From Thiomicrorhabdus sp. (lineage in GTDB: Bacteria > Pseudomonadota > Gammaproteobacteria > Thiomicrospirales > Thiomicrospiraceae), in NCBI GenBank assembly GCA_021648625.1, contig JAKISK010000001.1, positions 1 to 58,264 on the forward strand: a DNA stretch of 58,264 nucleotides, given 5' to 3'. A program made the position numbers and the translations under genes. This document shows positions 1,553-56,046 of this stretch, piece by piece; position 1 is the stretch's first letter, and each line of letters opens with the position of its first letter. Below the pieces are notes generated by a model. It saw nothing but the letters and a program-made list of their open reading frames with translations. It searched no databases and had not been told where the DNA came from.

Positions 1553-1927
1553 TCATATCATGGCGGTAAATTACTGTTTAATCAATGGTTTAAATGGTTT
1601 TTTTAGATGATATTGGAGCAATTATTATTCGGTTAATATCTTGTTTTAAATTGACTTTGAATTTTGATAGGGAGGGGGGAAGAAAATCTCAATCAATTTT
1701 TTACCCCCCCTTACCTCATCAAACTCAACCAATACATCCCCATCACCGATTACCTCGTAGAAGATTCGCAAGCAACTATTCATACTTATCAAGTCAACTA
1801 AAACTTGCCCCCCCCTATCCTGCCTGATGCCAAAATGGTGAATCAATGGAAGCCTATTTCGTATCTAGATGACTTTAAAGTTGTTTAATTTCATCCAGTC
1901 GCTTTTGTCTTTATTATATAAATAATA

Positions 1928-1949
1928 TTTAAAGGGTAGCGTCCCCTTT
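1928..1949 (-). repeat. 22-bp dispersed repeat (copy B), inverted relative to copy A
   Basis: Reverse complement reads AAAGGGGACGCTACCCTTTAAA. Confidence 0.7.
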
Positions 1950-2168
1950 AAAGCGTTTTAATAAATGCGCCATTATAACACTCTAAAAAGTACGGGCTAT
2001 GGCTTCAATAAACTTGATATTCATCAACCATCAACCCTTTTGTAAGCCTTACCAAAGCCTCCCGTCATGCTTATAAGCAAAGACTCATGCCTTCCTTAAC
2101 CCTATCCTCAAAAAAAAACGATACCATATTTGCAACATAACAAAACCACGAATAGAGGATAAAAAACA

Positions 2169-4359: not shown

Positions 4360-5007
4360 ATGAATATTTCTCAAAAAGCAGTTAAAATCGGAATTGTTGC
4401 CATTGGTGCACTTCTGCTGCTGTTTTTCCTATTTCAGTTTTTAACAAAACCGACACCTCATTCCCCCCCACCTCCTAAAGGCATTGTTAGTGAAAAACCA
4501 ACGGGGGGGAACTTTACACTGACCTCCATAAACGGCCAACAGTCTTTAAGTAACTTTAAAGACAAGTTGGTTTTATTGTATTTTGGCTACACCTACTGTC
4601 CTGATATTTGCCCAACCGACTTAGGCAACCTTGCCATGGCCTATCGTGGTTTAAACGATCAGGAAAAAGAACAGGTTCAAATCCTGTTTGTCACCGTTGA
4701 TCCAGAGCGAGACACCGTTAACCGAATGGCCGAATATACGGGCTACTTTGATGCCGATATGGTGGGGTTAACTGGCACCAATGCCGAAATCGCCACCGTA
4801 GCCAAACAGTATGGAGTGGTGTACATGAAAGCCAACAACCCTCTCAATAGCCACAGCAGTGCGGAAAATTACACCGTTGACCATTCCGCATTTACCTATA
4901 TCATAGATGCCACGGGGCAGTTGCAAACTCAACTTCCACATGCCATGCCCCCGCAACAGATTCAAAATACCATTCAAACTTACTTAACACAGGACAAAGC
5001 ATCATGA
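4360..5007 (+). CDS. SCO1/SenC copper chaperone
   Basis: FGYTYCPDICP, VTVDPERD, YTVDHSA; N-terminal TM helix. Confidence 0.93.
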   Translation: MNISQKAVKIGIVAIGALLLLFFLFQFLTKPTPHSPPPPKGIVSEKPTGGNFTLTSINGQQSLSNFKDKLVLLYFGYTYCPDICPTDLGNLAMAYRGLNDQEKEQVQILFVTVDPERDTVNRMAEYTGYFDADMVGLTGTNAEIATVAKQYGVVYMKANNPLNSHSSAENYTVDHSAFTYIIDATGQLQTQLPHAMPPQQIQNTIQTYLTQDKAS

Positions 5008-6819: not shown

Positions 6820-6845
6820 AAAAAAGGCCTTTATGGCCTTTTTTT
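6820..6845. terminator. Bidirectional intrinsic terminator between rpiA and hipA
   Basis: AAAAAAGGCC-TTTAT-GGCCTTTTTTT. Confidence 0.75.
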
Positions 6846-8009
6846 GCAATCATGCAAAATCGCCCAATCAATAGACTGAATAACATTATCTGACACGCCA
6901 TTCTGGCTAAAGACAGTTTGCCAATTTTGTTCAATCACTTGAACCATCTCCTCTAAAATAGAGTTGGCTTTTTCTCGATTTAAATTAAAGTCCTCAGCCC
7001 TTGAAAGCACATTGTCATAACTTGATTGATTCCCCTCTTTTCCAACCACAATCGCCTGAGAACGTCGTGTCCCTTCTCCAGCCACCACATCAAAAGCGGG
7101 GGTTAATCGCCATACACCATTTTTAAAATAAATCGCATGATTTTGATAATGATCGTCATGGTTTGAAATCAAAACATTAAATGCCATTCTGCGAAATAAT
7201 TCTTCAGAATCCAAGCCGCCATTTAGCCGTTTAAGCTCTAATGAAAAATCGGAATAACTTGCTTCTGCACTGTGTTTAACCCCTAAAACAGACATCATAC
7301 TTAAATAAGGAAGCTTTTGACTTTCCTCATAATCAAACCGCTCGGTTAAAAAAATATCCACCCCTTCTTTAAGATGAATAATGTCACTTTTAACCGTATT
7401 AATTCCAACCTCCCTTGCTAAGGCTAATGTACCATGTTCAATTTGAGCCACATTGACATAATCCCGAATGGTTGGCAGTTTGGCTAAATACATAACGCCA
7501 TTTTTTATCACGCTTAATTTAGGCCGTGCTCCTCCTTGACTGGCACCTTGCTTAAAAAGTTCAATTGCTTTATCAGACAGTACATTCGTTCGCTCAAAAT
7601 GTTCTTTGGCTTCCAATATCTCTTCCCAAAGAAAAGGTTCTTTTATAACGGAGGTCTCTAAATCGGGAAACGCCATTTTGGTGTTATAAATCAAATGCCC
7701 TACACGATCTTTTTGATTCTCTAACAGCAGTTCAAAATCCGTTAGTTTTTTTCCATAGCTGGCATTTAAAATGCATTCCCCCCAATGGCCTGGTTTTGAA
7801 TCCAAAAAAGAAGTGAGCATCCCTGAAAACCCACTGTTTGAAAAGAACGTTTTTGATGATAAAGGTAAAAAAATAGGATTAATCGCTAATGCATCTGAAT
7901 TTAATAAATACTGTTTGGCATAATTAAATTGAACCATCTCTCCTACTTTAGAAAGCCGACCCAACAACTCCTTATTCACATTAAAAATAAATAAATATTC
8001 CGTATTCAT
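6831..8009 (-). CDS. hipA: HipA-family kinase toxin
   Basis: SQGGARPK P-loop, TERFD, NHDDHYQNH, LTPAFD; N-terminal couple-HipA region. Confidence 0.9.
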   Translation of the reverse strand: MNTEYLFIFNVNKELLGRLSKVGEMVQFNYAKQYLLNSDALAINPIFLPLSSKTFFSNSGFSGMLTSFLDSKPGHWGECILNASYGKKLTDFELLLENQKDRVGHLIYNTKMAFPDLETSVIKEPFLWEEILEAKEHFERTNVLSDKAIELFKQGASQGGARPKLSVIKNGVMYLAKLPTIRDYVNVAQIEHGTLALAREVGINTVKSDIIHLKEGVDIFLTERFDYEESQKLPYLSMMSVLGVKHSAEASYSDFSLELKRLNGGLDSEELFRRMAFNVLISNHDDHYQNHAIYFKNGVWRLTPAFDVVAGEGTRRSQAIVVGKEGNQSSYDNVLSRAEDFNLNREKANSILEEMVQVIEQNWQTVFSQNGVSDNVIQSIDWAILHDCKKRP

Positions 8010-8024
8010 TGACCCTCCTGCCCG

Positions 8025-8486: not shown

Positions 8487-9134
8487 ATGTCTGCATTAAA
8501 CAATTTATCCCCCCCCCTATTCAAAGGGCTATACATCATCACCGATCCAATGCTTTGCCCAAAAGATACCCTTATTGAACAAGTGACTCAAGCATTAAGG
8601 GGGGGGGTAAAAATTGTGCAGTTTCGTGATAAAACCAGTTCTTTTCAAACCCAGTTAACCCTCAGTAAACAGCTCAAAACACTGTGCGAACAATATCAAG
8701 CCTACTTTATTGTAAACGACAACATCGAACTTGCTAAACAGTCGCAAGCACACGGCATACACCTTGGCAAAAACGACCAAGACCTGATAACAGCACGAGA
8801 ACAACTCGGCACTCAAGCCATTATTGGCGTAAGCTGTTACAACGATATGACCCTTGCTCTACACATGCAAACCTTAGGGGCAAGTTACGTCGCATTCGGA
8901 CGGTTTTTTCCCTCTCAAACCAAACCCAATGCCCCCCAAGCGGATATAAACACCTTAATACACGCCAAAAAAACGCTTAACATTCCCGTGGTCGCCATTG
9001 GCGGCATCACCGCAGACAATGCGTCACAACTGATTAAAACGGGCGTGGATTCTTTGGCCGTTATTCAAGGGGTATGGGGGCAAAAAAACATTCAAGCCGC
9101 CGCGCTTCACATTCAAAAGCAATTCACGGTATAA
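8487..9134 (+). CDS. thiE: Thiamine-phosphate synthase
   Basis: VQFRDK, IVND, HLGKND, GVSCY, FPSQTK, VAIGGI. Confidence 0.95.
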   Translation: MSALNNLSPPLFKGLYIITDPMLCPKDTLIEQVTQALRGGVKIVQFRDKTSSFQTQLTLSKQLKTLCEQYQAYFIVNDNIELAKQSQAHGIHLGKNDQDLITAREQLGTQAIIGVSCYNDMTLALHMQTLGASYVAFGRFFPSQTKPNAPQADINTLIHAKKTLNIPVVAIGGITADNASQLIKTGVDSLAVIQGVWGQKNIQAAALHIQKQFTV

Positions 9135-10501: not shown

Positions 10502-10560
10502 ATGGGTTTAAAATACTCAAAATTTTTCTCCCCCCCCTATTTATAAAGGAACACTTCTCT

Positions 10561-13693: not shown

Positions 13694-13871
13694 CCCTAAT
13701 CCCCAGATAGAATATACGTTTATAGCACAAGTCCTTGACGTACCTAGCAAATTCAAAAAAGAGCGCATCACCAATAAGGTGACTTCTTGAATTCAAGCCT
13801 TACCTTTTTTAAATTCACTATGCACATCAATTACTTGCACTCTAATTCGCACTTCTATCTGGGGATTAGGG
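13694..13871. mobile_element. 178-bp MITE with 19-bp perfect terminal inverted repeats and 5-bp target duplication
   Basis: CCCTAATCCCCAGATAGAA (13694-13712) ... TTCTATCTGGGGATTAGGG (13853-13871), flanked by ATAAT at 13689-13693 and 13872-13876. Confidence 0.85.
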
Positions 13872-16764: not shown

Positions 16765-18624
16765 ATGACAAAGCCCCCCCTTCACTACACCATTACCCCA
16801 AGCGACCCTAAAGGTCATCTATTTGAGGTAACCCTTACCATTGATGCCCCCGAACAACCCACGCAAACGGTTTGTTTACCCAACTGGATTCCGGGCAGCT
16901 ATTTAATTCGTGACTTCTCAAAACACTTCATTGGCTTACGCGCCGAGAACGCTCAGCAAGAACCACTTGAACTCACAATATTAGAAAAATCCAGCTGGCA
17001 GTTTGCCAGTGATGGGCAGGCGGTGACCTTGCGATATCAAGTGTATGCGTGGGATCTATCGGTTAGAGGCGCACACTTTGATGAGAGCCATGCCTTTTTC
17101 AATGGTACTTCGGTATTTTTAGCCGTGGAAAATCAACGAGATACACCGTGTTCTTTACAGTTAAGTTTAACTAGGTTTACTCAAGAAAATAACTGGAAAG
17201 TCGCCACGGGTTTACCAGCGACTAACGTAGATACTCAAGGCTTTGGCCACTACCAAGCCAACGATTACAATGATCTTATTGACCACCCCTTTGAGCTAGG
17301 AACCTTTACCGAAATTGAGTTTATGGCCTGTGGAATCCCCCATAAAATGGTCTTAACAGGGGTGTTTGAATGCGATGAAGCACGCCTAAAGCAAGATCTA
17401 ATTAAGATTTGTGAAACCGAACTAAAATTTTTCCCCCCCCCTATTCCCATCAAAAACTACCTCTTTCAAGTAATGGTCACGGGCAGTGATTACGGTGGCT
17501 TAGAGCACCGTAACTCCACCGCACTCATGTGCAGTCGTAACGATTTACCCTATCAAGGCATGACCCAAGCCACCGATGGCTATTTACAGTTTTTAGAACT
17601 GTGCAGTCACGAATACTTTCATACATGGAATGTAAAGCGAATCCAACCCGCCGTCTACCAGCAAGCCGATTTATCAACCCCCGTATACACCAATCAACTC
17701 TGGTGGTTTGAAGGCATAACCTCCTATTACGATGGATTAATACTACAACGCGCAGGATTAATTGATAACGACCTCTATCTGAAATTATTAGCAAAACAGA
17801 TGACCCGAGTCTACCGAATGCCCGGACGGTTTCAACAATCCGTAGCAGAGTCGAGCCTAACCACCTGGACCAAGTTTTACCAACAAGATGAAAATGCCCC
17901 CAATGCCATCATAAGCTACTACACCAAAGGCAGTTTAATTGCACTAGGGTTAGATTTAACCATTCGCCAACAGACCCAAGGGAAAAAATCGCTCGACGAT
18001 GTGCTGATTCATTTATGGCAACATTTTGGACAACAAGGCATTGGCCTGCAAGAAGGGCAAATTGAGCAAATTTGTTCTGAGGTTTCAGGCATTGATTTAA
18101 GCGACTTTTTTAACCGTTATCTGTACGGCACAGAAGACCTACCGTTTAAACAACTCTTTGCCCCATTTGGCATCGAATTCAGCTTACGCCCAGCCACAAG
18201 TTTAAGCGATTTAGGGGGGGCTCTTTTTAGTACCCCCTTGAGGGGTGAGAAAAAAGAAGAGAACCCAGCCCAAACCCTGCATTTAGGGGTAAATTTAGCC
18301 GAAACCGCTCAAAAAACCGTCAAAATCACCCACGTTTGGCAACAACAACCCGCCTACCACGCAGGCTTGGCGGCAGGCGATGAGCTCATTGCCATCAACC
18401 AAATTAAAATCAGCAGCAAACAGCAAATAGAAACCCTGCTCAAACGTAGCCAACCCAATACCACTTGGACATGCCACTACTTTAGACGCGACGAACTAAG
18501 AGAGTGTCAAATCTCCCCAACTCTCCCGCCTGCCGATCGAGTGGTCTTAATTGAAAAAAGCACATTCGGTTTTGCTCAAGACAGCGAACTGAATGTAAGC
18601 AAATACACTCCAAAATGGCTCTAA
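16765..18624 (+). CDS. M61 glycyl aminopeptidase with PDZ domain
   Basis: WIPGSY, GGLEH, SHEYFHTWN, WFEGIT, SYYTKG, PAYHAGL..GD; probable start MTKPP at 16765. Confidence 0.92.
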   Translation: MTKPPLHYTITPSDPKGHLFEVTLTIDAPEQPTQTVCLPNWIPGSYLIRDFSKHFIGLRAENAQQEPLELTILEKSSWQFASDGQAVTLRYQVYAWDLSVRGAHFDESHAFFNGTSVFLAVENQRDTPCSLQLSLTRFTQENNWKVATGLPATNVDTQGFGHYQANDYNDLIDHPFELGTFTEIEFMACGIPHKMVLTGVFECDEARLKQDLIKICETELKFFPPPIPIKNYLFQVMVTGSDYGGLEHRNSTALMCSRNDLPYQGMTQATDGYLQFLELCSHEYFHTWNVKRIQPAVYQQADLSTPVYTNQLWWFEGITSYYDGLILQRAGLIDNDLYLKLLAKQMTRVYRMPGRFQQSVAESSLTTWTKFYQQDENAPNAIISYYTKGSLIALGLDLTIRQQTQGKKSLDDVLIHLWQHFGQQGIGLQEGQIEQICSEVSGIDLSDFFNRYLYGTEDLPFKQLFAPFGIEFSLRPATSLSDLGGALFSTPLRGEKKEENPAQTLHLGVNLAETAQKTVKITHVWQQQPAYHAGLAAGDELIAINQIKISSKQQIETLLKRSQPNTTWTCHYFRRDELRECQISPTLPPADRVVLIEKSTFGFAQDSELNVSKYTPKWL

Positions 18625-19022: not shown

Positions 19023-19090
19023 ACTGTGTTTAAATGACGGTAACATATTTTCTCCCCCCCCCTATCTTCTAGAAAAGGCAGATACACGAA

Positions 19091-19678: not shown

Positions 19679-19750
19679 ATTTTTTCTCCCCCCCCTGCAC
19701 AAATTCATGTAGGTGACATTCTGGCAAACTTATAACAAGAAGGCTAAATA

Positions 19751-21668: not shown

Positions 21669-21860
21669 TTAAAGTTTTCTCCCCCCCTTTCTTATTAAAA
21701 TCGCTTTGTGGCTAATGCGCTTATTTTTTTTGAACGTTTCCGCGGCGGTATGCTCAATCAACGTCTTCCGCTCATCAGTCATAACGGATTTAAATTCACC
21801 AAATTCATAAGCATTTAATATTTCTTGCTCTTCTTTATCCAACTTAATTTTTTTCATCAT
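21669..21860 (-). pseudogene. Truncated antitoxin (BrnA/CopG-like)
   Basis: KLDKEEQEILNAYE.GEFKSV...FKKNKRI; the expected RHH DNA-binding C-terminus is missing. Confidence 0.65.
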
Positions 21861-31182: not shown

Positions 31183-31316
31183 GATAAAATTCCTGTTTAA
31201 ATCTATTTACTGAGCAGTTACTGCAATTAAGTGGCTGTTTGAAATAACCATTTTTAAAATTCGCTAAAAATTCTCCCCCCCCCCTATCAATCAGTTTAAG
31301 CACCAAACAATCCTAT

Positions 31317-31389: not shown

Positions 31390-33162
31390 TTACTTTTTCT
31401 TTTTAGGTGGCATCAAATCGGTAATGGTGCCTTCTGCCATCTCTGCGGCAAAGCAGAGCGTTTCGGATAGGGTTGGATGTGGGTGAATGGTTAAGCTAAT
31501 GTCTTGCATGTCCGCCCCCATTTCAATCGCCAGCATCGCTTCGGCAATCAATTCACCTGCGTTTGGCCCTACAATTCCACAACCTAGTAGACGGTGTGTT
31601 TTGGCGCAGAACATGGCTTTGGTTAGCCCTTCATCGCGTCCTAAACTTAGGCTACGACCGGATGCTGCCCATGGGAATGCGCCTTTTTCGTACTCGATGC
31701 CTTCGTCTTTAAGCTCTTGTTCGGTTTTACCCGCCCAAGCGACTTCTGGGTCGGTGTACGCCACCGACGGAATGCCCATTGGCGTAAAGGCACTTGGCAT
31801 GCCGTTAATCACTTCGGCCGCCACTTTGCCTTCATGCACGGCTTTGTGCGCTAACATCGGTTGCCCGACAAGATCACCAATGGCGTAAATATGATCAACA
31901 TTGGTTTTTTGACGTTCATCAACTTCAATAAAGCCCCAGTCATTGACCACTACACCCGCTTTTTCAGCGTCAATTAAATTGCCGTTGGGTGAACGCCCTA
32001 CGGCGACTAACACACGATCAAAGGTATCGGTTTCAGGGCAGTTTTTGCCTTCAAATGAGACCACTAGACCCGCATCGGTGGCTTCAACATTGGTGACTTT
32101 GGATTTAAGGTAAATATTTTCGTACTGTTTCTTAATCTTTTTCAACAACGGTTTAGTAATGTCTTTGTCGGCACCGGGAATAATGGTGTCACCCAGTTCG
32201 ACCACGGTAATATTAGAGCCAAATGAGTTATACACCTGCGCCATCTCAAGCCCAATAATCCCCCCCCCTATCACAAGAAGGCGTTTAGGAATTTCTTCCA
32301 AAGCCAATGCATCGGTGGAGTCCATCACTCTTGGATCATCGTGTGGAATAAATGGCAATTTCACCACACGAGAACCGGCGGCGATAATGGCGTTTTCAAA
32401 GGCAATGGTTTTTGTGCCACCATCTGTAAGTTCAACGGTAAGGGTATTGGCAGAGCTAAACTTGCCGTAACCATTCACAATATCGACGTTTCGTGCTTTG
32501 GCTAAACCGGCTAAACCACCCGTTAATTTATGAATGACGCCGTCTTTGTAAGCCCGAATTTTATCAATATCAATCTCGGGCTCTTGAAAGGTAATACCAT
32601 GTGCAGACATGCCGCGCGTTTCATCCAGCACGACAGACATGTGCAGTAATGCTTTGGACGGAATGCAACCAACATTTAAACAAACGCCCCCAATACTGCT
32701 GTAACGCTCGACCATCACCACTTTTTTGCCTAAATCGGAGGCTCTAAAAGCAGCGGTATACCCTCCAGGGCCTGACCCTAATACCAATACTTCACACTGA
32801 ATATCGGCATCGGGCAAGCTGGCGGATTCGATCGCCGTAGGGGCTGGTTGTTTAGCCTCTTCGGTTGGCTGTGCTGTTTGGTTAACTGACGCACTTACAT
32901 TTTTTGCAATGGTTTCGGCACTGGCGATTTCCATGGTGCCAATAATGGAGCCTTCCGCAAGTTTGTCACCCACTTCGGCTGAAAAAGAGACAATTTTTCC
33001 CGCAAAAGGCGCTGGAATTTCCATGGTGGCTTTATCGGACTCTAACGTCAATAAGGAGTCATCTTGTGCGACTTCTTCGCCTGCCGATATTAATACTTCA
33101 ATCACTTCAACTTCGGCAAAATCCCCAATATCAGGGACAACAATATCTACAATTTTGGTCAT
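31390..33162 (-). CDS. lpdA: Dihydrolipoamide dehydrogenase with N-terminal lipoyl domain
   Basis: LESDKA lipoyl motif, GSGPGG, GGVCLNVGCIPSK, HPHPTLSE. Confidence 0.97.
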   Translation of the reverse strand: MTKIVDIVVPDIGDFAEVEVIEVLISAGEEVAQDDSLLTLESDKATMEIPAPFAGKIVSFSAEVGDKLAEGSIIGTMEIASAETIAKNVSASVNQTAQPTEEAKQPAPTAIESASLPDADIQCEVLVLGSGPGGYTAAFRASDLGKKVVMVERYSSIGGVCLNVGCIPSKALLHMSVVLDETRGMSAHGITFQEPEIDIDKIRAYKDGVIHKLTGGLAGLAKARNVDIVNGYGKFSSANTLTVELTDGGTKTIAFENAIIAAGSRVVKLPFIPHDDPRVMDSTDALALEEIPKRLLVIGGGIIGLEMAQVYNSFGSNITVVELGDTIIPGADKDITKPLLKKIKKQYENIYLKSKVTNVEATDAGLVVSFEGKNCPETDTFDRVLVAVGRSPNGNLIDAEKAGVVVNDWGFIEVDERQKTNVDHIYAIGDLVGQPMLAHKAVHEGKVAAEVINGMPSAFTPMGIPSVAYTDPEVAWAGKTEQELKDEGIEYEKGAFPWAASGRSLSLGRDEGLTKAMFCAKTHRLLGCGIVGPNAGELIAEAMLAIEMGADMQDISLTIHPHPTLSETLCFAAEMAEGTITDLMPPKKKK

Positions 33163-34479: not shown

Positions 34480-34579
34480 ACTGTTTTTTCCTAGAAGATT
34501 CTCCCCCTTCCTTATTGATTCGATAGAGGGGGGGGGGAGAAAATTTAAAATTATGTCACGAAAACTAAAAAACCACTAT

Positions 34580-35905: not shown

Positions 35906-37294
35906 ATGTCTAAGCAACAACCAACCATTGGTGTCATCAGTTTAGGGTGTCCTAAAGCAACGGTGGATACCGAACGAATTTTGACGCAGTTGCGTACGGA
36001 AGGCTACCATTTAACCAATAGCTATGAAGATGCCGATGCCGTTATTGTAAACACGTGCGGCTTTATTGACAGCGCGGTACAAGAGTCGTTAGACACCATT
36101 GGTGAAGCCTTAGAAGAGAATGGCAAAGTCATTGTAACAGGCTGCTTGGGTGCTAGAGAGGAACAAATTACCAAAGTACATCCTAAAGTATTAGCCGTGT
36201 CAGGACCTGCGGCATACGAGGAAGTGGTGTCCGCGATTCATGATGTCATAGCACCGCCAGAACACAATCCTTTTACCGATTTGGTTCCACCTCAAGGGAT
36301 TAAGTTAACCCCAAAACATTATGCCTATCTAAAAATTTCAGAAGGGTGCAATCACCGTTGTACCTTCTGCATTATTCCCTCCATGCGGGGTGACTTAGTG
36401 AGCCGTCCTGTGGCTGAAGTGATCGAGGAAGCGAAACGCTTAAAAGAGGCGGGGGTTAAAGAGTTGTTGGTGGTATCTCAAGATACCGCGGCTTATGGCG
36501 TGGATGTAAAATATAAAACGGACTTTGCAGAAGGCCGCCCCACCAAAACCTCTATGTTGGGTCTGTCAGAAGCATTGGGAGAGTTAAATAAAGCAGGGGG
36601 GGGAGAATTTTGGATTCGTTTGCATTACGTCTACCCGTACCCTAATGTTGAAGAGGTCATTCCATTAATGGCTGAAGGTAAAATATTGCCTTATTTGGAC
36701 ATGCCATTACAGCATGCAAATGCACGGGTGCTCAAAGCAATGAAACGTCCCGGTAATGTTGAAAAAACCTTAGAGCGCATTAATAAGTGGCGCAAAGCGG
36801 TGCCTAACTTAACCATTCGTTCAACTTTTATTGTCGGCTTTCCGGGTGAAACCGAAGCGGAGTTTCAAGAGCTATTGGACTTTTTACAAGCGGCACAGTT
36901 GGATCGTGTCGGCTGTTTTCAATACTCACCTGTTGAAGGCGCCACGGCCAATGAAATTGCAGAGCAAGTGCCTGATGAGGTGAAGCAAGACCGTTTTGAT
37001 CGCTTTATGCAAACTCAGCAAGCGATTAGCTTAGCCAAAATGCAGGCCAAAATAGGTCAAGTAATGCAGGTGTTAGTGGACGAAGTGGTTGAGGAGGGTG
37101 CGGTAGCACGCTCAATGGCCGATGCCCCTGAAATTGATGGCCAAGTCTTTATTGATGGGGCAACGCACTTAGAAGCAGGGCAGTTTGTGACGGTTGAGAT
37201 TGTCGCGGCAGATGAATATGATTTGTGGGCAAACTTGTTAGAGAGCAAGCCATCACCATCACAAGCTTCTGAAGCCTATAAGGAATTAAATTAG
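35906..37294 (+). CDS. rimO: Ribosomal protein S12 methylthiotransferase
   Basis: [20 protein letters not shown] radical SAM motif, DAPEIDG TRAM domain. Confidence 0.97.
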
Positions 37295-37525: not shown

Positions 37526-38703
37526 ACTTGGTTTTTTCCCGCTTGTTTGGCTGCATAAAGTGCTTGATCGGCTTGATCGATGAGCTGTTCAGCGGTCATA
37601 CCCTTTTGTAATTGCGCTACACCAAAGCTACAGGTAATGTGCACCGCACTCTCTGAAAACGCACTGTTTTCAATACGAACCCTTACCTTTTCACAAAACA
37701 GACTGGCGGACTCAAGGGTTTCATGTGGTAAAACAATTAAAAATTCTTCCCCCCCCCAGCGGCCAAACTCATCTGTGGCACGAATAATGGGTTTTATCTC
37801 CTGTACCATTTCAGAGAGTACGCTGTCGCCAATAAGGTGACCATACTGATCATTAATGCCTTTAAAGTTATCAATATCAAATAGTGTTAAGGAGAGTGGT
37901 GTCTCATAGCGTTCTGCATTTTTAATGGCTTTAGAGAGCGCGGTATTAATATTACGTCGGTTGGATATTTTAGTGAGTTCATCAATGGTTGACAGCGTTT
38001 GCAGCTCATCCAGTACTTGTTTGGCCTGTTGTCTGGCCTTGAGTAGAGATATTTCATTAATGTAAATGATAAACGTTAAGATGAATAGCGCGGCGGTGAG
38101 ACGAATAAAGCCCAGTTCACTCCAGAGGCCTTCTTGCCACTGGCCAATGCCGTTATAGGCGAGTGTCAGTAATACGGCTAAAAATACCAGCGCGTAACGT
38201 AATCCTATTTTTGGACCGTTAATGACCAATGCAAAAACAGGAAAGAAAAATACCCAAATTAAACTGAAGTTTTCATTTTGATTTAAATCGACAAACAGCA
38301 GTAAAAAGACCGCAAAGGCCAAGGTTGCAAACTGCGCTATTTTATCGGTATTGCCACGACTTGGGTTACGATTAAGCGACATAATGGCATACAACGCCAC
38401 CAAGCCGGTAAACAGCTCAAGAATAAAAGCACTGTTGCTAATACTCTGATAAACAAAGGCATGTAAGGTGCTAAAGAAAAAGAGCATGATAAACGTAATG
38501 TAAAGGCACGTTTTAAGCAAAATACGTTTGCGTTTATAGGCTAAATTTTCTAGCCCCTCTATGCTAATACAGGTATTTGGCTGGTTGGCACACAATAAGG
38601 TTTGATAAATTCTTTTTAAAAAGCGGCTCAAAAGAAGACTCCTTGTTAGAAGGTACGCGGGTATTTTTTTTGGGGGGGAAGTGGTGAAATTTAAAAATGC
38701 CAT
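37495..38703 (-). CDS. Membrane-bound diguanylate cyclase
   Basis: Multiple TM helices, DELT..NRR, DIDNFK.IND.YGH..GD, RATD I-site, GGEEF; start uncertain. Confidence 0.92.
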   Translation of the reverse strand: MAFLNFTTSPPKKIPAYLLTRSLLLSRFLKRIYQTLLCANQPNTCISIEGLENLAYKRKRILLKTCLYITFIMLFFFSTLHAFVYQSISNSAFILELFTGLVALYAIMSLNRNPSRGNTDKIAQFATLAFAVFLLLFVDLNQNENFSLIWVFFFPVFALVINGPKIGLRYALVFLAVLLTLAYNGIGQWQEGLWSELGFIRLTAALFILTFIIYINEISLLKARQQAKQVLDELQTLSTIDELTKISNRRNINTALSKAIKNAERYETPLSLTLFDIDNFKGINDQYGHLIGDSVLSEMVQEIKPIIRATDEFGRWGGEEFLIVLPHETLESASLFCEKVRVRIENSAFSESAVHITCSFGVAQLQKGMTAEQLIDQADQALYAAKQAGKNQVRPLHKRMHG

Positions 38704-41787: not shown

Positions 41788-41802
41788 TTTTTATCCCCCC
41801 CC

Positions 41803-42882: not shown

Positions 42883-44879
42883 TTAGGCGTCTCTTGTTGT
42901 GATTGACGCGCTTTGCGTTCAGCGGCGCGTTTTTTGGCGGCTTCCATCGCTTTTTGACGTTTGTTTTTGGCATCCTCTTTTGCGTTGTCGTTTGTAACAT
43001 CAACTTGATGGGATGACTCATTTGTTTGAATAATGGCATCCGTAGGAGTGGCTTCGGTGGTTTTTTTAGCCTCTGCACGGCGTTTGGCGGCTGCCATGGC
43101 GGCGGATTTTTTAGCCAATTTTTTGGCTGAATCTCTAGGATCTTTGGCCGTAGCCACCTTAGAGCCGACTTTTGCAGCCGCTTGTTTTTGAGCGGCTTCA
43201 ATCGCTTTTTGTCGTGCCGAAGGCGGTGTGGCGGCATTTGCATTGTTTGTTACGGAGGTGCTGCTTTTTTTATTGGCTGCGGCACGTTTTGCTGCTGCGG
43301 CTCGGGCGGCGGCGGCCGCCGCACTGGGTTTTTTAACGTCACTCGAATCGGAAGCAGGCTTCTGTTTTTTAACCGCCTCTTTTTTGGCTTTTAAACGCGC
43401 TTCTCGTTCCTGTTTTTCACGTTCAATGCGTGCCAGTCTAAACTCATAACGTTGTTTCGCCAGTTCAGCGGCTTGCTGTTCGGCGTGTTGGATTTTAATT
43501 TCTGATTTTGCATGACGATAATATTGCACCAGAGGAATGTGACTGGGGCAAACGTAACTGCAACAGCCACACTCAATGCAGTCAAACACATTCAGCTTTT
43601 CCACTTTCTCAAATTCATGGGCTTGAGCGTGCCAGTACAATTGTTGAGGCAAGAGATTGACTGGGCAGGCATCCATGCACTCACCACAGCGAATACATGG
43701 CATGGTAAACGCTTTGGGTTCGGGAGGATTGACCAATATGCAGTTGGTGGTTTTCATCACCGGCACATCATTGTGAGCGACCTCAAACCCCATCATGGGA
43801 CCTCCCATAATAAGGGGGTAGTGAATGGGCGCTTTAGGGCCTCCAGCATTGGCCAATGTGATAAAAGGGGTGCCTAATAGCGCGTAAGTATTGTAAGAAT
43901 CGGCCAACCCAAATCCCGCAACGGTTATCAGTCGTTGTGTCAATGGCTTGCCATGAATCACCGCATTAAAAATAGCATGAAATGTGGCAACATTAAAGAC
44001 CAGTACACCACTGTCAATGGCATGGGTTTTCACAGGGATTTCAATCCCTGTGAGTTCTAAAATGATCTGTTTTTCCCCCCCCATAGGGTAAACCGCTTCC
44101 AGTGTTTCAATGGAAAGGGATTGGTTTGTTACTTTACTGGCGGCTATTTTCATCGCCTGAATGGCGAGTGGTTTATTGGATTCAATGCCACAATAAATCT
44201 GTTTTACCCCCAAGGCTTCCGCTACGATAACGGCTCCTTGTATAATCTGTTCGGCTTGGGTTTGCATCAACACATCATCACAGGTAATAAAAGGTTCGCA
44301 TTCGGCACCGTTAATGATGAGGGTGTTAATTTGATGTTGCTGAGCGGGAATTTTAGCGAAGGTTGGAAAGCCTGCTCCCCCTAACCCCACAATGCCGGCA
44401 TGAAGTAAAATGTCTTTTAATTGTTGCGGGCTGGTTGGTGGTTGTCCAGAAACATTAAGGGCATTTTTAAGCTCACGATTCTGAGCGTCGGGCGTAATGA
44501 TAATTGCCTGAGTGGTTAAGCCAGAAGGGTGGGGGAACTCCGCTTGCGTAATGGCCTGAATGATGCCCGAAGTGGGGGCATGAATCGGAACAATCCAGCC
44601 TTTTTTATTATTTTTGGCGGCTTGAGCAAGGCATTGGTTTTTTTGCACCTCATCGCCTACCTTGACCAGCCACTCTACTTTTTGCCCAGCCATCAGTTTT
44701 AGTGGAAGCGTAAGGGTCTCAGGTATCACCGCCTCTTTGATTGGGTGCTGTAAGGACAAGGCCTTATGGTGTGCAGGGTAAACCCCCCCATGAAAGCGAT
44801 GAAGCCAGCGCCTTGCCATCGGGTAAATGGCCGCAACGCCTTGAACGACCGATTGAATGAAAGGAGAATGAGCACTCAT
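42879..44879 (-). CDS. rnfC: Rnf complex subunit C with Ala/Lys-rich tail
   Basis: [35 protein letters not shown]. Confidence 0.96.
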
Positions 44880-48711: not shown

Positions 48712-48741
48712 CTAAAATTTATCCCCCCCTCCAGCCTAAAC

Positions 48742-49974: not shown

Positions 49975-50346
49975 TCACGGGTTTTCCCCTGTTTTCATGG
50001 TGATAGGGCTACTATCATCGGAATCAGTAAAGTCAGAATCGATTCCCCGTTTCATTTCCACAATGTCTTGAACGACCATCTGTTTAAGGGTTCCCACAAA
50101 ATAGCGAATGTTGGCGTCGTACTTGTGGTGAATGCTTAAGATGACTTGATGACCAATGCTGTCGGTGGGGTTGATTTTTGTGTTGCGACTGGCGACTTGG
50201 ATGTTGCCTTGGTAGGGCGTGGAGAGGGTTTCAGTAAACTCAAACGCCAGCACACGAAGGCTCCCAGAGGGTTGCCCGCCTAATTCGAGCATAAACCCCC
50301 AGTCGTAGGGTTGGTCTTGCTGGATTAGATGAGTGACTGCTTTCAT
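49975..50346 (-). pseudogene. vgrG: VgrG N-terminal fragment fused to a scrap of the ankyrin gene
   Basis: LRVLAFEFTETLSTPY...VQDIV, ~165 bp nearly identical to 55830-55995; tail DSDFTDSDDSSPI matches DPDFTDSDEGSPI of the ankyrin gene at 50966-51913. Confidence 0.85.
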
Positions 50347-50421
50347 GGGATGGCCTTTCTGTCGTGCGGTTGTTTATGTTAACGCGCGTTACGTTCGTTA
50401 CGTTTTAGAGCGTGTAGTGGG

Positions 50422-50988
50422 TTAAGGATGACGAATTAAAAAAACCACACGACGATTCTCTTGTCGTCCGCTTGCGTGGGTGTTGTCTGCAATGGGGCGC
50501 TCTTCGCCATAACCAAACGTTTGAATACGTTCTTGAGTAATGCCGTTTTGAACCAAGTAGGCCGCCACACTGTCAGCGCGTTTTTGAGAGAGCGATTGAT
50601 TGAGTGCTTTGCTTCCGATGGAATCGGTATGGCCTTCAATGTGTACGGTGGTGTTTGGGTATTGATTTAAAATGTTTAACACGGGGGTTAAACCTTCACG
50701 TTTTTTGGGGTTTAACTTAGCAGAGCCAAAGCGAAAACTGCCGTCTTTGAGGGTGACTTCAATGATCGGTTGGTCGTCAAGGTGAATCAGCGTTGATTGG
50801 GTTGAGGTTGAGGCGGTTTGGATAGGGGGGGGGGATGATTTTTGAAATGGATGTTGTAAATATCCCCCCTTGTTGGAAGTGAGGGATTTATAAGGTTTAT
50901 TTGAATGGAGGGTGAATATTTTTTTAAATGATATAAAATTTATTCTCAAAAAAATGATGCATACGTTAGGAATTATTATTTGCCTCAC
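50422..50988 (-). pseudogene. OmpA-like peptidoglycan-binding domain, probably 5'-truncated
   Basis: IEGHTDSIG...NQSLSQKRA, GYGEERP, NRRV; sequence upstream of the G10 tract at 50825-50834 looks non-coding. Confidence 0.75.
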
Positions 50989-51913
50989 GAATTTTTTTGA
51001 CTCTCTCTATCTCTCGTTTTTCAAATTCTTTTACTTCTTTAAGTTCTTGCAGTAAACGTTTTTTTTTGGTTGGATCGGTTTCGGTATCTATCGCTTTATC
51101 CAATTCTTTGAGTCGTGCCTTAATGTCGTATTTATTCGGCTTACCTTCTTGCCAACGAACTTCTCGCGGAGAGGGAGGGGGGAATTCTACACCACGATCA
51201 ATCAATTGTTGTTTGACTTTGATAGCCCAGCCGTAGGCGGGGAATTCGGGGCTGAGTAGGTTTTTAGAAAGACCTTCATGAACAAGCCATGCAAGATCCG
51301 CTCGTCCTCCCTTACTTCGAATAGTATAATCGGAACCCCGTTCAATTAAATAATACACCATTTCAAATCGATTGATCATCGCTCCATGCAATGTACTGTT
51401 AAGACCAGAACGATCCATTAAATTAATGTTTGCACCAAAACGAATCAGCATTTTAATTTGGTCAAGGCGTTCTCCGGCCACAGCCGCAAACATAGCGGGA
51501 TGCCCATCACGATCTATTGTATTGGGATTTCCTCCCCCCTCAAGCAAAATTAGCAACAATTCAGAGTCTTTCGCACCTGTTACAAGAATAATAGGGCTAC
51601 CTTCATCGGAATCAGTAAAATCAGGATCAGCCCCCAGTTTTATAGCTAGGCGCATCGCGGCTTTATCTTTGTTTATGATGAACCAAAACAGTGGGGTAAT
51701 GCCTTCGTTGCCGTGTACGTTTAAAGACAGGCCTTTATCAATCAGGCTACGGGCTTTAAGTTCATCGTTTTTCTCGATGGCTGTAATGAGTTCGATCATC
51801 TCGGGTTCAAAAAAATTGGAGAGTTTCATGGTGTTTCCTGTGAGTTCGCAACCCGACAACACCGCAAGCAATAAGCCAGTGGTGAGGGCGATGGTTTTTT
51901 TTAAATTAAACAT
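50966..51913 (-). CDS. Ankyrin-repeat lipoprotein, putative T6SS immunity protein
   Basis: Lipobox LSGC; GITPLFW, LGADPD, GGNPN, GANIN repeats. Confidence 0.85.
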   Translation of the reverse strand: MFNLKKTIALTTGLLLAVLSGCELTGNTMKLSNFFEPEMIELITAIEKNDELKARSLIDKGLSLNVHGNEGITPLFWFIINKDKAAMRLAIKLGADPDFTDSDEGSPIILVTGAKDSELLLILLEGGGNPNTIDRDGHPAMFAAVAGERLDQIKMLIRFGANINLMDRSGLNSTLHGAMINRFEMVYYLIERGSDYTIRSKGGRADLAWLVHEGLSKNLLSPEFPAYGWAIKVKQQLIDRGVEFPPPSPREVRWQEGKPNKYDIKARLKELDKAIDTETDPTKKKRLLQELKEVKEFEKREIERVKKIREANNNS

Positions 51914-51934
51914 AGAAACACGCATGAGGTTTTA

Positions 51935-52836
51935 TCATTGTTTTGGTATTAATTTTTTAACGGCTTCCAACTCTTTTTGCAAGGCTTCTCTCTTATTTTG
52001 ATCCGATGTGTTTTCTATTTCTTCTTTTAGATCTTTTTTGCGTATATCAATGTCAATACTGTCTGGGTTTCCCTTACTCCAGCGAACATCGAATGGAGAG
52101 GGGGGGGGAATTTTACGCCACGATCAAGTAATTGTTGTTTTACTTTTAATGCCCAATCGTAGGCATCGGATTCGGGGTTAATGAGGCCTTTCGAAAAGCC
52201 ATTATGTATATTCCACGCAATATCTGCACGAGTTGAACTACGTTTATCAAAGTCCGCCCCCTTTTCTATCAGGTAATGCGCCATTTTAAATTGATTCATA
52301 TGAGCTGCATACAGGGCACTATTTTTATTCGATTTATCCGTTAAATTAATATCCCCTCCAAATTTAATCAACATATCCAGTTGCTCTTTTCGGTTATTTA
52401 CAACGGTGGGAAACATCACGGGTTCACCATCACTGTCTATCGTATTAGGGTTTGCACCACCTTCTAGCAGAATCAATATCATTTCGTCATCATTGTCTTC
52501 CACTACTATGGAAAGAGGCGTATCTCCATCAGGGTCGGCAAAATCGGGGTCGGCTCCCAGTTTCATTGCCAAGCGCATGGCGGCTTTATCTTTGTTTATG
52601 ATGAACCAAAACAGTGGGGTAATGCCTTCGTTGCCGTGTACGTTTAAAGACAGGCCTTGATCAATTAGGCTACGCGCTTTAAGTTCATCGCCTTTTTGGA
52701 TGGCGCTAATGAGTTCGATCATATTGGGTTCAAAAAAATCTGAGAGTTTCATGGTGTTTCCTGTGAGTTCGCAACTGCTGAGTAAACTGAGTAATAGGGT
52801 AAGGCCAAGGGTTCGTATTTTTTTAAATGTAAACAT
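51935..52836 (-). pseudogene. Paralogous ankyrin-repeat lipoprotein frameshifted in a C9 tract
   Basis: Lipobox LSSC; adding one base to the tract at 52100-52108 restores PPPSPFDVRWSKGNPDSIDI...KKLIPKQ*, which aligns with the paralogue tail. Confidence 0.8.
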
Positions 52837-52864
52837 GTGACGGTTTCCTTCGTTTTTTTATTTT

Positions 52865-53236
52865 TCATGGGCGATTCTCTTGTTTATTTTTTCTTTTATT
52901 CATCTTGTCTCTAGCCATTTTGTTTCTTCCCATCGGGCGGCTTTTGTTGGGTTCGGTTAGGGGTTTTTCTGAGTATGGGGTATTTATGTCTTCGTTCTCT
53001 TGCGCTTTGAGCAATTGATCCATGTCTTGATGGCTTTGGGGGTTGCCTTCGCTGCAATAACGGGTTTTGTTAAGATCATCCTTGGGGTCAAGTTGTGTTT
53101 GCGTGCTGGGCGTGAGTGCGTTCACGGCATCGTGGGTGCGTCCTATAATGTTGGCTTTTGGATTGGTTTTAGATGGGGGGGGGAATTTGGATTGGATTTT
53201 TACCCCCCCCCTTTTTTTAGGAAGGCGATATTTCAC
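52865..53236 (-). pseudogene. Mosaic remnant: cassette repeat + vgrG scrap + probable effector C-terminus
   Basis: IIGRTHDAVN matches IMGRTHDAVN of both vgrG copies at DNA level; GNPQSHQDMDQLL resembles a lipase-effector tail (recall). Confidence 0.55.
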
Positions 53237-53250
53237 GATATTAAAAAGTG
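53179..53250 (-). repeat. ~70-bp cassette-head repeat, copy 1
   Basis: 33 bp at 53218-53250 identical to 56028-56060; GGGGGAATTTGGATTGGA also shared. Confidence 0.85.
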
Positions 53251-53353
53251 CTTTCTATCTGAATAATAATGCTTTTGAATGTTGTAAAACAGGCTTGACC
53301 CTTTTTTTTTCTTGATGTCGAAAAATGTTTTGTTATTTTAGTTTGTTGAGTTA

Positions 53354-53665
53354 TCAGGATGATGAATATTGAATGTATTTTTTCCAAAAATCGGAGTCAA
53401 ATACACTTTCAACGTCTATTTTTAGTCCTTTACCAAGATCTGTATACATGTCGAAATCAATGTTTTTTGGCTTTTGGTCTAGATTCATTAGTTCAATAAA
53501 AAGGCCTTCATAGGCCATTTCATATTCATTATGATCAATATAATGTTGAACTGCTTCCACAGTTTCAATATCTAATTGTTCAGAATATTTATCTAACAAA
53601 ATTTGAAGTAAATGTTCTGAATTATTTATCCAGAATGTATCATCTTTTTTATTCATCATTATCAT
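53354..53665 (-). CDS. MafI-like immunity protein
   Basis: HYIDHNEYEMAYEGL motif; small acidic gene immediately after an EndoU toxin domain. Confidence 0.75.
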   Translation of the reverse strand: MIMMNKKDDTFWINNSEHLLQILLDKYSEQLDIETVEAVQHYIDHNEYEMAYEGLFIELMNLDQKPKNIDFDMYTDLGKGLKIDVESVFDSDFWKKYIQYSSS

Positions 53666-53667
53666 TT

Positions 53668-56046
53668 CTATGGGTTAGGTCTAACATTAGTTGGGTAAGC
53701 GGTAGAGATTTGGCCAGCATATTTAGGATGGTTTTTTGGATAAAAATCAACTCGTATTTCTATACCATCACGAACACCAGTAACATAAGGAGAATTCCAC
53801 TTTCCAACTCCTTTGATCGAATTGGGATCTTTGGCAATATCTGAGATATTTTGAAGAATTTTTTCATCATTCCAATTAGCGGGAAATTCTGTTTTTCCAG
53901 ATTTACCAGTACCCGCTCGATGACGATTAAGAATATGATCTTTTCTGTGAGCAATTAGATCAACAGATTTAATTTTTTTATCAATTATATCATCTTTTTC
54001 ATTGCCTTTATTGTTGTCAACAGCATTATTACTATCGGATTTATCTTTATTACCAAACACATTTTTAACAATGTTTGTAAAAATTTTTCTAGGCGAAAGA
54101 TCTCCCAACATATCCGTTGGAAAAAATAGAGGTTCGATGGCTCCACTGCCAAAATCATCAGGAACTTGAGAACCACTGCTTGCGACCTGAACAGGCTCCA
54201 CACTTTTATTTATGCCAAATTCTTTCGTCTCATTCGCCTTAAACCCACCAAACTCCCCAGCCTTCGGTTCCACCGCCATGTTGTCAAGGTTTGTCTTGGC
54301 TTGAGAAGCGCCGCCACCGCCGGCATTAATCTTAACCATTCCCCCTTGGATGGTCGTGATGCCTTGGCCTTTGATGGTGATTTTTGTTCCGGCCACGGTA
54401 ATTTGGGTGGGGGTCATTTTAATTTGATTGGCGCCCAGATTAAACTCGATAAAATCATTGGCGGTGATTTGGATGGATTTGGCTTTTTTTTCACTGGCTT
54501 GAATGACGTTTACTTTGAGTTCGCCTTCTATTTTAACGATTTCATTGTTTTTTATCAGTCGTCTGTAGTCTTTTTCGGCGTGGACGTAAATTTCTTCTTC
54601 GCCTTTTTTATCTTCAAATCGCAGTTCGTTAAATCCTGTGCCTTTGTGGGTTTTGGATTTAATGCTCATTCTTGTTTTGTGTTGAGGCAGGGCGTGGGGC
54701 AGTGGGTTTACGGCATCGTGGGTGCGTCCCATAATAATCGGTTGGTCGGGGTCGCCCTCTAAAAACTTAACCATCACTTCTTGTCCTACTCTGGGAATCG
54801 CCATGTTTCCCCAGCCTGCGCCTGCACTGCCTTGTGAGACGCGAACCCAACAACTGCTAAAATCATCGTATTGGCCTTCTATATCCCACGGAAACTGCAC
54901 CTTAACCCGTCCATGTTCGTCGCAATAAATCTCTTCGCCTTGGGGACCGACCACATGGGCGATTTGAGGGCCGTCTATGGTGGGTTTTGTGGGAATCTTA
55001 TTTCGCCAACTGTATGCCCCCAGCGGAAACAGCATCGATGCATTGTGATAACGGGTGTCTTGGCTTTGGGTGTCGTTTCGTGCCTCGGTGGCTTGGGGTT
55101 GTGTGCCGGTGTGGATAGTAGTGATAACTTGGTAGGTTTGGTTTCTGTTTGTATTGGGATGGCGTAACAGCGTAACGCCATGCCCCGCACTTAAGTGGGG
55201 CACATTGCTGTGTACCGTGGCGTGTGTGATGGCATTGCGTTCGGCCTCAAGCTGGTATTTTGTAAAACGTTTGCCACTGCCATCGTCTTTATAGCGTCCG
55301 TAGGGATTGTATTGTTCATACACATCGGGTTCACCGCCCAGACGTGCTTGGTAAAGTGTGTGTTCTTGGTTGTAACGTGGGTTCTTAAAACAGTAATCGC
55401 GCTGTTTGATGTCGGTGGTGCCAAGGGATTCTGTCCAGTCTAAATCGTACATAAACTGACCCTTAAGCACCACACTGGGGTCGGGGTTGTATTCAATGTT
55501 GGGTTCCAACAGAACTGAGCCAAGCGAACTGTGGTCGATTACTATCAGCTTTGCGCCGCTTTTTGAGTGTTCCCAAAAGTAAAAAAAGCCCTCTTCGGCG
55601 AGGAGTCGTTCGATAAACGCCAAATTGGTCTCTTGGTACTGCACACAATATTCACGGGGCGGGTGATCGTCTTGGGTTCTAAATTCGTAATCGACCAAGC
55701 CATGTTCTTTGAGTATTTTTTTAACGATGTCGGGAACGGTTTGTTGTTGAAACACACGGGCGTTGGAGGTGAGGCTTAATCGTTGTAGATCGGGTTCAAT
55801 GAGGAGGGTGTAGTACGCCCACCCATCCACAATGTCTTGAACGATCATCTGTTTAAGCGTTCCCACAAAATAGCGAATGTTGGCGTCGTACTTGTGGTGA
55901 ATGCTTAAGATGACTTGATGACCAATGCTGTCGGTGGGGTTAATTTTTGTGTTGCGACTGGCGACTTGTATGTTGCCTTGGTAGGGGGTGGAGAGGGGGA
56001 ATTTGGATTGGAATTTTAGCCCCCTTCTAGGAAGGCGATATTTCAC
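53668..56046 (-). CDS. vgrG: Evolved VgrG with C-terminal EndoU-like RNase toxin; native N-terminus missing
   Basis: REYCVQYQET, GRVKVQFPWD, SCWVRVSQ, PRVGQEV, NELRFED; toxin HILNRH..GKTEFP.NW...ISTAYP; first ~17 codons derive from the repeat. Confidence 0.88.
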   Translation of the reverse strand: MKYRLPRRGLKFQSKFPLSTPYQGNIQVASRNTKINPTDSIGHQVILSIHHKYDANIRYFVGTLKQMIVQDIVDGWAYYTLLIEPDLQRLSLTSNARVFQQQTVPDIVKKILKEHGLVDYEFRTQDDHPPREYCVQYQETNLAFIERLLAEEGFFYFWEHSKSGAKLIVIDHSSLGSVLLEPNIEYNPDPSVVLKGQFMYDLDWTESLGTTDIKQRDYCFKNPRYNQEHTLYQARLGGEPDVYEQYNPYGRYKDDGSGKRFTKYQLEAERNAITHATVHSNVPHLSAGHGVTLLRHPNTNRNQTYQVITTIHTGTQPQATEARNDTQSQDTRYHNASMLFPLGAYSWRNKIPTKPTIDGPQIAHVVGPQGEEIYCDEHGRVKVQFPWDIEGQYDDFSSCWVRVSQGSAGAGWGNMAIPRVGQEVMVKFLEGDPDQPIIMGRTHDAVNPLPHALPQHKTRMSIKSKTHKGTGFNELRFEDKKGEEEIYVHAEKDYRRLIKNNEIVKIEGELKVNVIQASEKKAKSIQITANDFIEFNLGANQIKMTPTQITVAGTKITIKGQGITTIQGGMVKINAGGGGASQAKTNLDNMAVEPKAGEFGGFKANETKEFGINKSVEPVQVASSGSQVPDDFGSGAIEPLFFPTDMLGDLSPRKIFTNIVKNVFGNKDKSDSNNAVDNNKGNEKDDIIDKKIKSVDLIAHRKDHILNRHRAGTGKSGKTEFPANWNDEKILQNISDIAKDPNSIKGVGKWNSPYVTGVRDGIEIRVDFYPKNHPKYAGQISTAYPTNVRPNP

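Follow-up and report, generated by a model that had tools for sequence, protein, structure and literature searches.

A dispersed poly-C motif in a Thiomicrorhabdus vent genome: one dialect of a family-wide signature and a likely DNA-uptake signal

What is the short poly-C motif that recurs on both strands of a Thiomicrorhabdus contig, inside genes as well as between them? The stretch analysed here, 58,264 nucleotides of JAKISK010000001.1 and called the window below, is contig C60 of genome G000, a metagenome-assembled genome (MAG) of Thiomicrorhabdus vent type (1.92 Mb, 42% GC, 80% complete). Three of the seven sequencing runs that contained more than one-third of the words of a test stretch were labelled hydrothermal vent metagenome, and no RNA run was among the matches listed for those words. 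An initial annotation had read the motif as an A/T block, a run of eight to ten C and TAT, and had proposed an uptake signal, a nucleoid-protein site or a recombination signal. We find that it is likely a DNA-uptake signal. Sequence-biased transformation is the best explanation because the anatomy of the motif matches that of the DNA uptake sequences (DUS) of Neisseriaceae and the uptake signal sequences (USS) of Pasteurellaceae.

The 18 C/G runs of 8–10 bases and the five 7-mers behind that proposal are all present where it had placed them (18/18 and 5/5), and the window holds four more 7-mers, at 4463, 16774, 18214 and 44783. The excess that it had claimed from a rough estimate was borne out, with 18 runs of at least 8 bases where 30 replicates of an order-2 Markov model averaged 0.93 and never exceeded 3. 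Genome-wide, G000 contains 529 C/G runs of at least 8 bases and 791 of at least 7, and the counts for lengths 5 to 10 (1392, 373, 262, 244, 182 and 75) level off after length 6. In the genes predicted by our own simple gene caller (1861 in G000), 317 runs of at least 8 bases were counted vs ~33 under synonymous-codon shuffling (20 replicates), an excess of about 10-fold over this codon-preserving null.

The proposed flanks held in part. At least six of the eight bases 5′ of the C run are A or T in 18/18 window runs, whereas the literal block AAATTTT[CA]T occurs in 1/18. TAT follows 8/18 window runs but is a minority ending genome-wide (17% of 528). A T directly 3′ of the run is found in 86% of the 528, vs 35% for runs of 4–5 bases, and at least seven A/T bases among the eight 5′ of the C run are found in 79% of runs of 8 or more vs 13–16% of runs of 4–5. 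In G-strand orientation the motif reads A-G7-10-(AG or TA)-AAA-TTT, which is looser than the consensus first given and lacks a second A/T block. The word GGGGGGGAGAAA has 152 copies, and single changes at its positions 2–5 leave just 1–3 copies each. The dialect of the window is asymmetric, that is, not a palindrome of the kind represented by the cyanobacterial highly iterated palindrome HIP1. The runs are real: they exceed the codon-aware null, they keep their A/T flank when aligned with one another, and they show no sign of artefact in the assembled contigs on which this was checked.

How did such runs come to lie inside genes? G000 genes were aligned to 400 kb each of two other family genomes, G058 and G059 (~1/6 of each genome). 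Coding runs of at least 8 bases aligned gap-free in 29/37 cases against G058 and in 28/31 against G059, and 21/29 and 19/28 of these (~70%) changed at least one amino acid. Identity in the run codons was 0.60–0.62 vs 0.75–0.77 across those genes. Conserved Gly-Gly pairs are coded GGG-GGG in 33/234 cases in G000 (9 expected) and in 2/234 in G059. At the rsxC site (44075), G000 and three clade sisters read GGG-GGG-GAA, and seven outgroup loci have interrupted G-G codons, without a gap; five of these seven encode GGQ. Among sister-genome runs, 48/68 coincide in position with a G000 run of at least 7 bases (alignment identity 72–79%), and in the reverse direction 48/95 G000 runs were matched, counts in which overlapping alignments may have been scored twice. 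The clade retains intact mutS and mutL. Because the alignments are mostly gap-free, sites are shared between sisters and mutS/mutL are intact, the sites are not accounted for by slippage, insertion or assembly error. The alignments indicate that the motif arose by in-frame base substitution, often altering conserved proteins.

Loss of mismatch repair was rejected, with mutS over the cut-off in 41/42 genus genomes and mutL in 5/5 clade genomes. Block insertion of miniature inverted-repeat transposable elements (MITEs) or repetitive extragenic palindromes was ruled out by the gap-free coding alignments; the two MITE families of the genome are separate sequences. The sites do not behave as phase-variable simple repeats, being in frame in housekeeping genes and mostly gap-free relative to relatives.

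The 529 runs of at least 8 bases comprise 316 inside genes, 187 intergenic and 26 at gene or contig ends, and sites are spread evenly over contigs (chi2 104, 95 degrees of freedom). Coding runs are read as GG(G)E/V/K or as SPPP, the latter 16-fold above composition, and coding G8 starts fall in frames 0, 1 and 2 in 31, 5 and 64 cases. Spacing is random (exponential) save for close pairs, with 50 spacings below 30 bases vs 10 expected. Neighbours within 60 bases are inverted in 52/56 cases; among 49 inverted pairs, 39 lie past a gene 3′ end, one is divergent, six are in genes and three at contig edges. Hairpin-forming pairs account for 98/690 flanked sites (~14%), and 86% are unpaired. The initial annotation had also described the motif as occurring on both strands and not polar, and this was upheld. 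With the leading strand taken from skew on 79/96 contigs, the G run lies on that strand in a ratio of 282:162 (63.5%), and since this skew is smaller than that of ordinary G4–G6 runs (66–70%), the motif is not polar beyond background; its inverted pairs and the palindromic dialects of sister genomes (see below) cannot be polar. AT-rich genes (G+C at third codon positions <0.28, 53 kb) contain 0 sites vs ~13 expected at mean density. Among the longest motif-free gaps are Wadjet, type VI secretion system (T6SS), transposase, type I restriction-modification and ribosomal-protein loci, plus core genes. In the longest of those in G000 (L237:10096-17054, G000:C70), Wadjet (JetABCD-like) genes adjoin a cell-wall/division cluster.

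The motif is not confined to this genome. The initial annotation had proposed presence in sister genomes as a check: six of 42 genus genomes have 116–315 copies of WTTHW-C8, one further genome has 17 and the others 0–3, and the motif marks a single clade of six genomes. Phylogenetic analysis of MetG places the window with five named vent MAG loci in a single clade (94/99); runs are present in four of the five loci and absent from the fifth, which is 5.7 kb long. The G-strand word RG8WDWWWW occurs 396 times in G000 vs at most 10 times in each of 397 Gammaproteobacteria outside the family. In the Thiomicrospira-Hydrogenovibrio-Thiomicrorhabdus family we surveyed 99 genomes (G050 and G058 are apparently one genome and were counted once). 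The palindrome ACCAGGCCTGGT is present at 45–718 copies in 41/99 genomes of four genera, and A-G8 at 33–528 copies in 12/99 others of two genera. The two sets of genomes do not overlap, and G006 is nearest to mixed (84 palindrome, 26 A-G8). The dialect of G058 is TGAGCA-G7, and that of G059 is ACCAGGCCTGGT itself (83 copies in 400 kb). Further dialects, read from 20–80 kb samples and in several cases resting on 5–15 copies, are GAACAGGCCTGTT, AGCAGGCCTG, ACCGGCCGGT, AACAGGCCGGGTA, ATCGCCAGGGGTGG, AAAAATCACCA-G7-T, AAAAAGTGCCCA-G6-T and TA-G8+-TAAAAA. No dialect was seen in 20–58 kb samples of G003, G045, G023, G077, G078 and G054.

A 12-base frame fits ACCAGGCCTGGT, GCCAGGGGTGGT, ACCAGGGGGGGT, AGCAGGGGGGG and the (T/G)AGGGGGGG of the window with its added A/T tract. 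Because most dialects have CAGG or AGG and fit this one frame, the window motif is best read as a derived form. The poly-C form is thus a derived dialect of a family-wide 12-mer, which the initial annotation had missed, and one of about ten related signatures in the family, with bridging dialects joining the palindrome and A-G8 forms. The shift from palindrome to poly-G probably occurred in three lineages, and in at least two. MetG rejects joining G058 to the window clade (approximately unbiased test, p 0.0125, for a group named after seeing the tree), and protein identities over 72 genes (G058-G059 80.5%, G000-G058 79.2%, G000-G059 78.2%) separate G058 from G000 weakly. In the same set of 72 genes, compared without an outgroup, residues of G000 are matched more often in G058 than in G059 (1273 vs 1088 sites; 24 vs 11 genes); this excess could be a rate difference or exchange between poly-G lineages. 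Two genomes show unusual variants. In G092 (L210-L213), G runs flanked by TAAAAA reach 23 bases, which may be an extreme version of its dialect or the result of added slippage. G090 (L214-L216) has two head-to-head dialect fusions, ACACCA-G6-7-C6-7-TGGTGT, restoring a long version of the ancestral palindrome.

We asked whether methylation or restriction accompanies these forms. A C5 methylase (E 1e-20) was not found in 29/41 palindrome-rich genomes, and a PF01555 methylase was not found in 5/5 palindrome-rich genomes tested, a search that did not include the Dam-type D12 family. The methylase model proposed for HIP1 therefore fails for the family palindrome, since most carriers lack a C5 methylase and all five tested lack PF01555. 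CCGG observed/expected ratios were 0.07–0.49 in all 13 sampled genomes with G-rich forms vs 0.75–1.35 in 23 others, and GGCC tends to be lower too; this CCGG poverty indicates that the mutation or restriction regime differs in genomes with G-rich forms. A nuclease of the NgoPII family is encoded beside C5 methylases in G013, as is an EcoRII C-terminal domain in G085. Their targets, which we take to be GGCC and CCWGG, both lie within the palindrome. We infer, more weakly, that the shift from palindrome to poly-G was favoured by restriction systems cutting at GGCC and CCWGG. Against this stand the presence of a C5 methylase in just 5/12 poly-G genomes and the example of G006, which is CCGG-poor yet mostly palindromic; the samples are small, with kinship and habitat confounded.

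The uptake proposal had called for a search for competence genes, and the family was found to have parts for transformation. comEC is present in 92/98 family genomes and in 5/5 clade sisters, comEA in 38/42 genus genomes and in 4/5 clade sisters, and pilT, pilU and dprA in G000 and in 5/5 genomes tested. G000 also has assembly genes and pilins resembling those of the mannose-sensitive haemagglutinin (MSHA) pilus, and the pilin cluster was matched in 92/98 family genomes. A sequence-selective step of transformation would favour fragments bearing the motif, and recombination of such fragments would fix motif-improving point mutations where proteins tolerate them. The selective step would be uptake itself, presumably performed by the MSHA-like pilus of the family with PilT/PilU, ComEA, ComEC and DprA, and dialects would change when receptor preference changes. 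By analogy with DUS and USS, hundreds of protein-changing sites, end-of-gene pairs, lack of polarity and dialects are the pattern of uptake-driven molecular drive.

The uptake interpretation thus gains from the anatomy (substitution in genes, inverted pairs, dialects) and from the competence genes, but no receptor was found, and this and several other observations weigh against it. The searches found neither comEC nor comEA in the G000 assembly, which is 80% complete. No PilQ-type secretin was over the cut-off in any of 99 family genomes. Whereas ComP has a basic globular part, no clearly basic pilin globular part was seen (net charge at most +1) among pilins read from ~20 genomes, in which the ComP Pfam model was not searched directly. 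An orphan pilin was rejected as receptor, with no close match in 5/5 motif-rich genomes searched. The pilus and comEC are also present in G003, G045, G023 and G078, where 20–58 kb samples showed no motif, and a receptor that reads bases would not usually recognise a tract of varying length. Several long motif-free stretches are core genes, and genes shared with relatives are not richer in sites (0.254 vs 0.237 per kb in the rest). At 0.28–0.41 per kb, the sites are sparser than DUS/USS, for which one account gives thousands of copies (PMC3630211). In G080 a Mu-like prophage carries the palindrome core near host density (9 CAGGCCTG in ~30 kb).

Other results touch the same subjects. Viral contigs gave 0 matches for an 18-base word of the window dialect and 8 single-site matches for a 16-base palindrome, numbers to which no weight was given. 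ComEA was considered as specificity factor and set aside, inspection showing no feature common to the poly-G lineages. The orphan pilin-like gene (~170 amino acids, invariant GGSxGxNYGLIAG) is found in some members of the genus, its chromosomal location differing among them (L186:5228-5743, L187-L193). The terminase model PF03237 was over the cut-off in 1/60 motif-bearing vs 7/38 other family genomes; because related genomes do not count independently and many phages escape a single model, the comparison was not used as evidence. Low terminase in motif-bearing genomes would fit transformation purging prophages.

Could the sites instead be bound inside the cell? They might be bound by a nucleoid organiser, or by a factor that acts on incoming or broken DNA to protect it or to load recombination there, and selection for binding or biased recombination after entry might then spread them. 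The even distribution over contigs, the inverted pairs and palindromic ancestral form, which suit a dimeric binder, the palindrome core in a prophage and the negative search for a surface receptor all agree with such a protein. We nevertheless regard it as unlikely: hundreds of sites change conserved proteins, which would be hard for weak selection on each site to achieve, and spacing is exponential apart from close pairs, without an ordered array. The lack of polarity beyond background is not that of a Chi- or KOPS-like signal (FtsK-orienting polar sequences, KOPS), and several complete relatives lack the motif in the samples, unexpected for an essential chromosome signal.

A functionless bias of mutation or repair, in which misalignment extends G runs by substitution or a methylase guides a HIP1-style repair ratchet, would account for a core that is a pure homopolymer of variable length, reaching G23 in the G092 lineage. 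The CCGG poverty of the 13 genomes with G-rich forms agrees with it, and the palindromic dialects contain GGCC. Run extension would not, however, produce fixed lineage flanks (TGAGCA, AAAAAGTGCCCA, AAAAATCACCA) or dialects that are not homopolymers, and inverted pairing is not expected from mutation alone; with mutS and mutL intact in the clade and methylases missing from the palindrome-rich genomes noted above (29/41 for C5, 5/5 for PF01555), we consider such a bias improbable, more so than an intracellular binder. That the runs are phase-variation tracts, terminator stems or assembly artefacts is least credible of all, and very improbable. G/C tracts of 8–10 bases are typical slippage switches, and a one-base length change was seen next to the intergenic run at 41795-41802 in contigs of two sequencing runs. 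In-frame sites in lpdA, rimO and rsxC are nevertheless common to independently assembled species, contigs of four studies overlap the stretch in part, with none of the 12 indel rows shown falling inside an in-gene run (20 further rows were not included), and other MAGs of the genus lack the runs. The ~14% of flanked sites in hairpin-forming pairs would suit terminators, against the 86% that are unpaired.

The probable uptake signal was compared with known systems. Sequence-specific uptake has been described as unique to Neisseriaceae and Pasteurellaceae (PMC3630211), and permissive gene positions, frame bias, gene-end inverted pairs and lineage dialects are reported for its sequences (PMC3630211; bioRxiv 10.1101/2025.10.24.684340; PMC1939737). 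Like Pasteurellaceae USS (AAGTGCGGT, ACAAGCGGT) and Neisseriaceae DUS, the motif is a short word with hundreds of copies on both strands, with frame bias, inverted gene-end pairs and dialects that track lineages. It differs in its unrelated sequence, its homopolymer core of variable length, its palindromic ancestral dialect and its lower density; moreover, no PilQ-type pilus and no ComP/ComN-like pilin was found, and the hosts are free-living marine chemolithoautotrophs. USS have a G-rich core followed by an A/T tract, a layout that the window motif resembles. In the sequence tests run, the motif behaves as a DUS/USS save for core-gene enrichment, where the observations are mixed, and a receptor, which was not found; for this reason we do not class it as a member.

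The family dialect ACCAGGCCTGGT also likens these genomes to cyanobacteria with HIP1 (GCGATCGC) or alternative palindromes, as it contains the octamer CAGGCCTG, an alternative highly iterated palindrome of Synechococcus sp. PCC 6312, where its density is given as 0.37 per kb (PMC5861425). HIP1 goes with DmtA/DmtC (PMC4390886) and was recently proposed as a broad uptake sequence (PMC13756078); the function of such iterated palindromes is described as still debated (PMC5861425, PMC13756078). Unlike HIP1, the window dialect is non-palindromic and without a methylase-type site, and most palindrome-rich relatives lack a C5 methylase, the five tested also lacking PF01555. With Chi and KOPS or the architecture-imparting sequences (AIMS), the motif shares dispersed G-rich words and a raw leading-strand excess of G runs, but its skew (63.5%) is below that of ordinary G4–G6 runs. 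Poly-G phase-variation loci likewise have G/C tracts of 8–10 bases, whereas the sites here arose through substitution, keep the reading frame of housekeeping genes and have a fixed flank, and mutS/mutL are intact. An excess of G/C runs is said to occur in Helicobacter hepaticus, a report that we could not confirm. No description of these motifs or of uptake specificity in the family was found in the full-text literature, although the palindrome may already be given in supplementary k-mer tables or in papers behind subscription, and CCAGGCCTGG was not found among the literature matches listed.

Within the window, individual sites are given here with the strand that reads the A/T block and then the C run. 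Ten on the plus strand lie between genes, near gene ends or ahead of a restriction-modification locus: a C7 with its A/T block (1704..1710, intergenic), a C8-TAT 5′ of a TonB-dependent receptor gene (1808..1815, intergenic), a C9-TAT at or just 5′ of the thiE 5′ end (8509..8517), TTTTTCT-C8-TAT after hemL (10530..10537, intergenic), TTTTCT-C9-TAT (19054..19062, intergenic), TTTTTTCT-C8 nine bases past a stop codon (19688..19695), TTTTCT-C7 as the final site ahead of the 9.6 kb motif-free restriction-modification locus (21681..21687), AAAAATTCT-C10-TAT between lpdA and hsdM (31275..31284), a C8 between the rsxD stop and the rsxG start, read as G8 at the rsxG ribosome-binding position (41795..41802), and AAAATTTAT-C7 in a convergent intergenic gap (48723..48729). 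The run at 41795..41802 has degenerate copies in three clade sisters and is absent in four outgroup loci. On the minus strand, the best consensus match, AAATTTTCT-C10-T, lies upstream of the pyruvate dehydrogenase E2 gene (34528..34537).

Sites in or at the ends of genes on the plus strand are a C9 in an M61 peptidase gene, read as FFPPP (17433..17441), C9 runs that are the coding-strand G9 of lpdA (32260..32268) and of a GGDEF gene (37749..37757), and a C8 in rsxC, GGG-GGG-GAA, read as GGE (44075..44082). Those on the minus strand are an in-frame coding-strand G9 in thiE (8599..8607), a G8 in rimO read as AGGGEFW (36596..36603), a G7 with weak flank at the GGDEF gene 5′ end (38672..38678), a C10-TAT in the 5′ part of an OmpA-domain open reading frame (50825..50834) and AAAATT-C9 near the 3′ end of an ankyrin gene (52100..52108). 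Two inverted pairs were given no single strand. One is a C7 (4463-4469) and a G7 (4503-4509) within a SCO1/SenC gene (4463..4509); the other, at 53175..53211, is G9, 19 nucleotides and C9, then T7 on the plus strand. The hairpin formed by the latter (-22.3 kcal/mol, z -1.64) lies within the range of shuffled sequences; because of this, and because its T tract is opposite to the strand of the local genes, termination by this pair is not supported.

The window also contains mobile and accessory loci. A MITE at 13694-13871, with 20-base terminal inverted repeats beginning CCCTAATCCCCAGATAG, belongs to a family of 80 genome loci, 67 of them long, unrelated to the G-run motif. A second family (~160 bases, termini GAGACCTTTGC...GCAAAGGTCTC, 38 loci) is found at 18864-19022, 34580-34740 and 37367-37525, with apparent target duplications at several copies. 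The type I restriction-modification locus at 22100-31182 (hsdR, hsdS, hsdM) has inserted YhcG, AAA and RhuM genes and no motif over 9.6 kb. A T6SS cassette (49975-58250) comprises vgrG, a VgrG-tail protein with PT-TG and Ntox46 domains, two ankyrin genes and the OmpA-domain gene, and a HipA/HipB-like toxin-antitoxin pair lies at 6831-8327. The window gave no Rfam match and no tRNA.

For the family as a whole we suggest, tentatively, that it may be a third one with self-specific uptake, operating through an MSHA-like pilus and a non-ComP receptor, with a methylase-free HIP-like ancestral palindrome and repeated poly-G switches in restriction-rich vent lineages. Here one family shows palindromic and DUS/USS-type forms joined by single-step dialects, about ten variants with at least two independent switches, and it has members, cultured and non-pathogenic, that would allow cognate motifs to be set against non-cognate ones. 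If the uptake interpretation is true, it points to a new DNA receptor and a route to transform carbon-fixing sulfur oxidisers, HIP-type palindromes and DUS/USS-type signals would lie on one continuum, and the dialects would be gene-flow barriers written into the genomes of co-occurring vent species. Even if uptake is wrong, some process rewrites hundreds of codons per genome in a lineage-specific manner.

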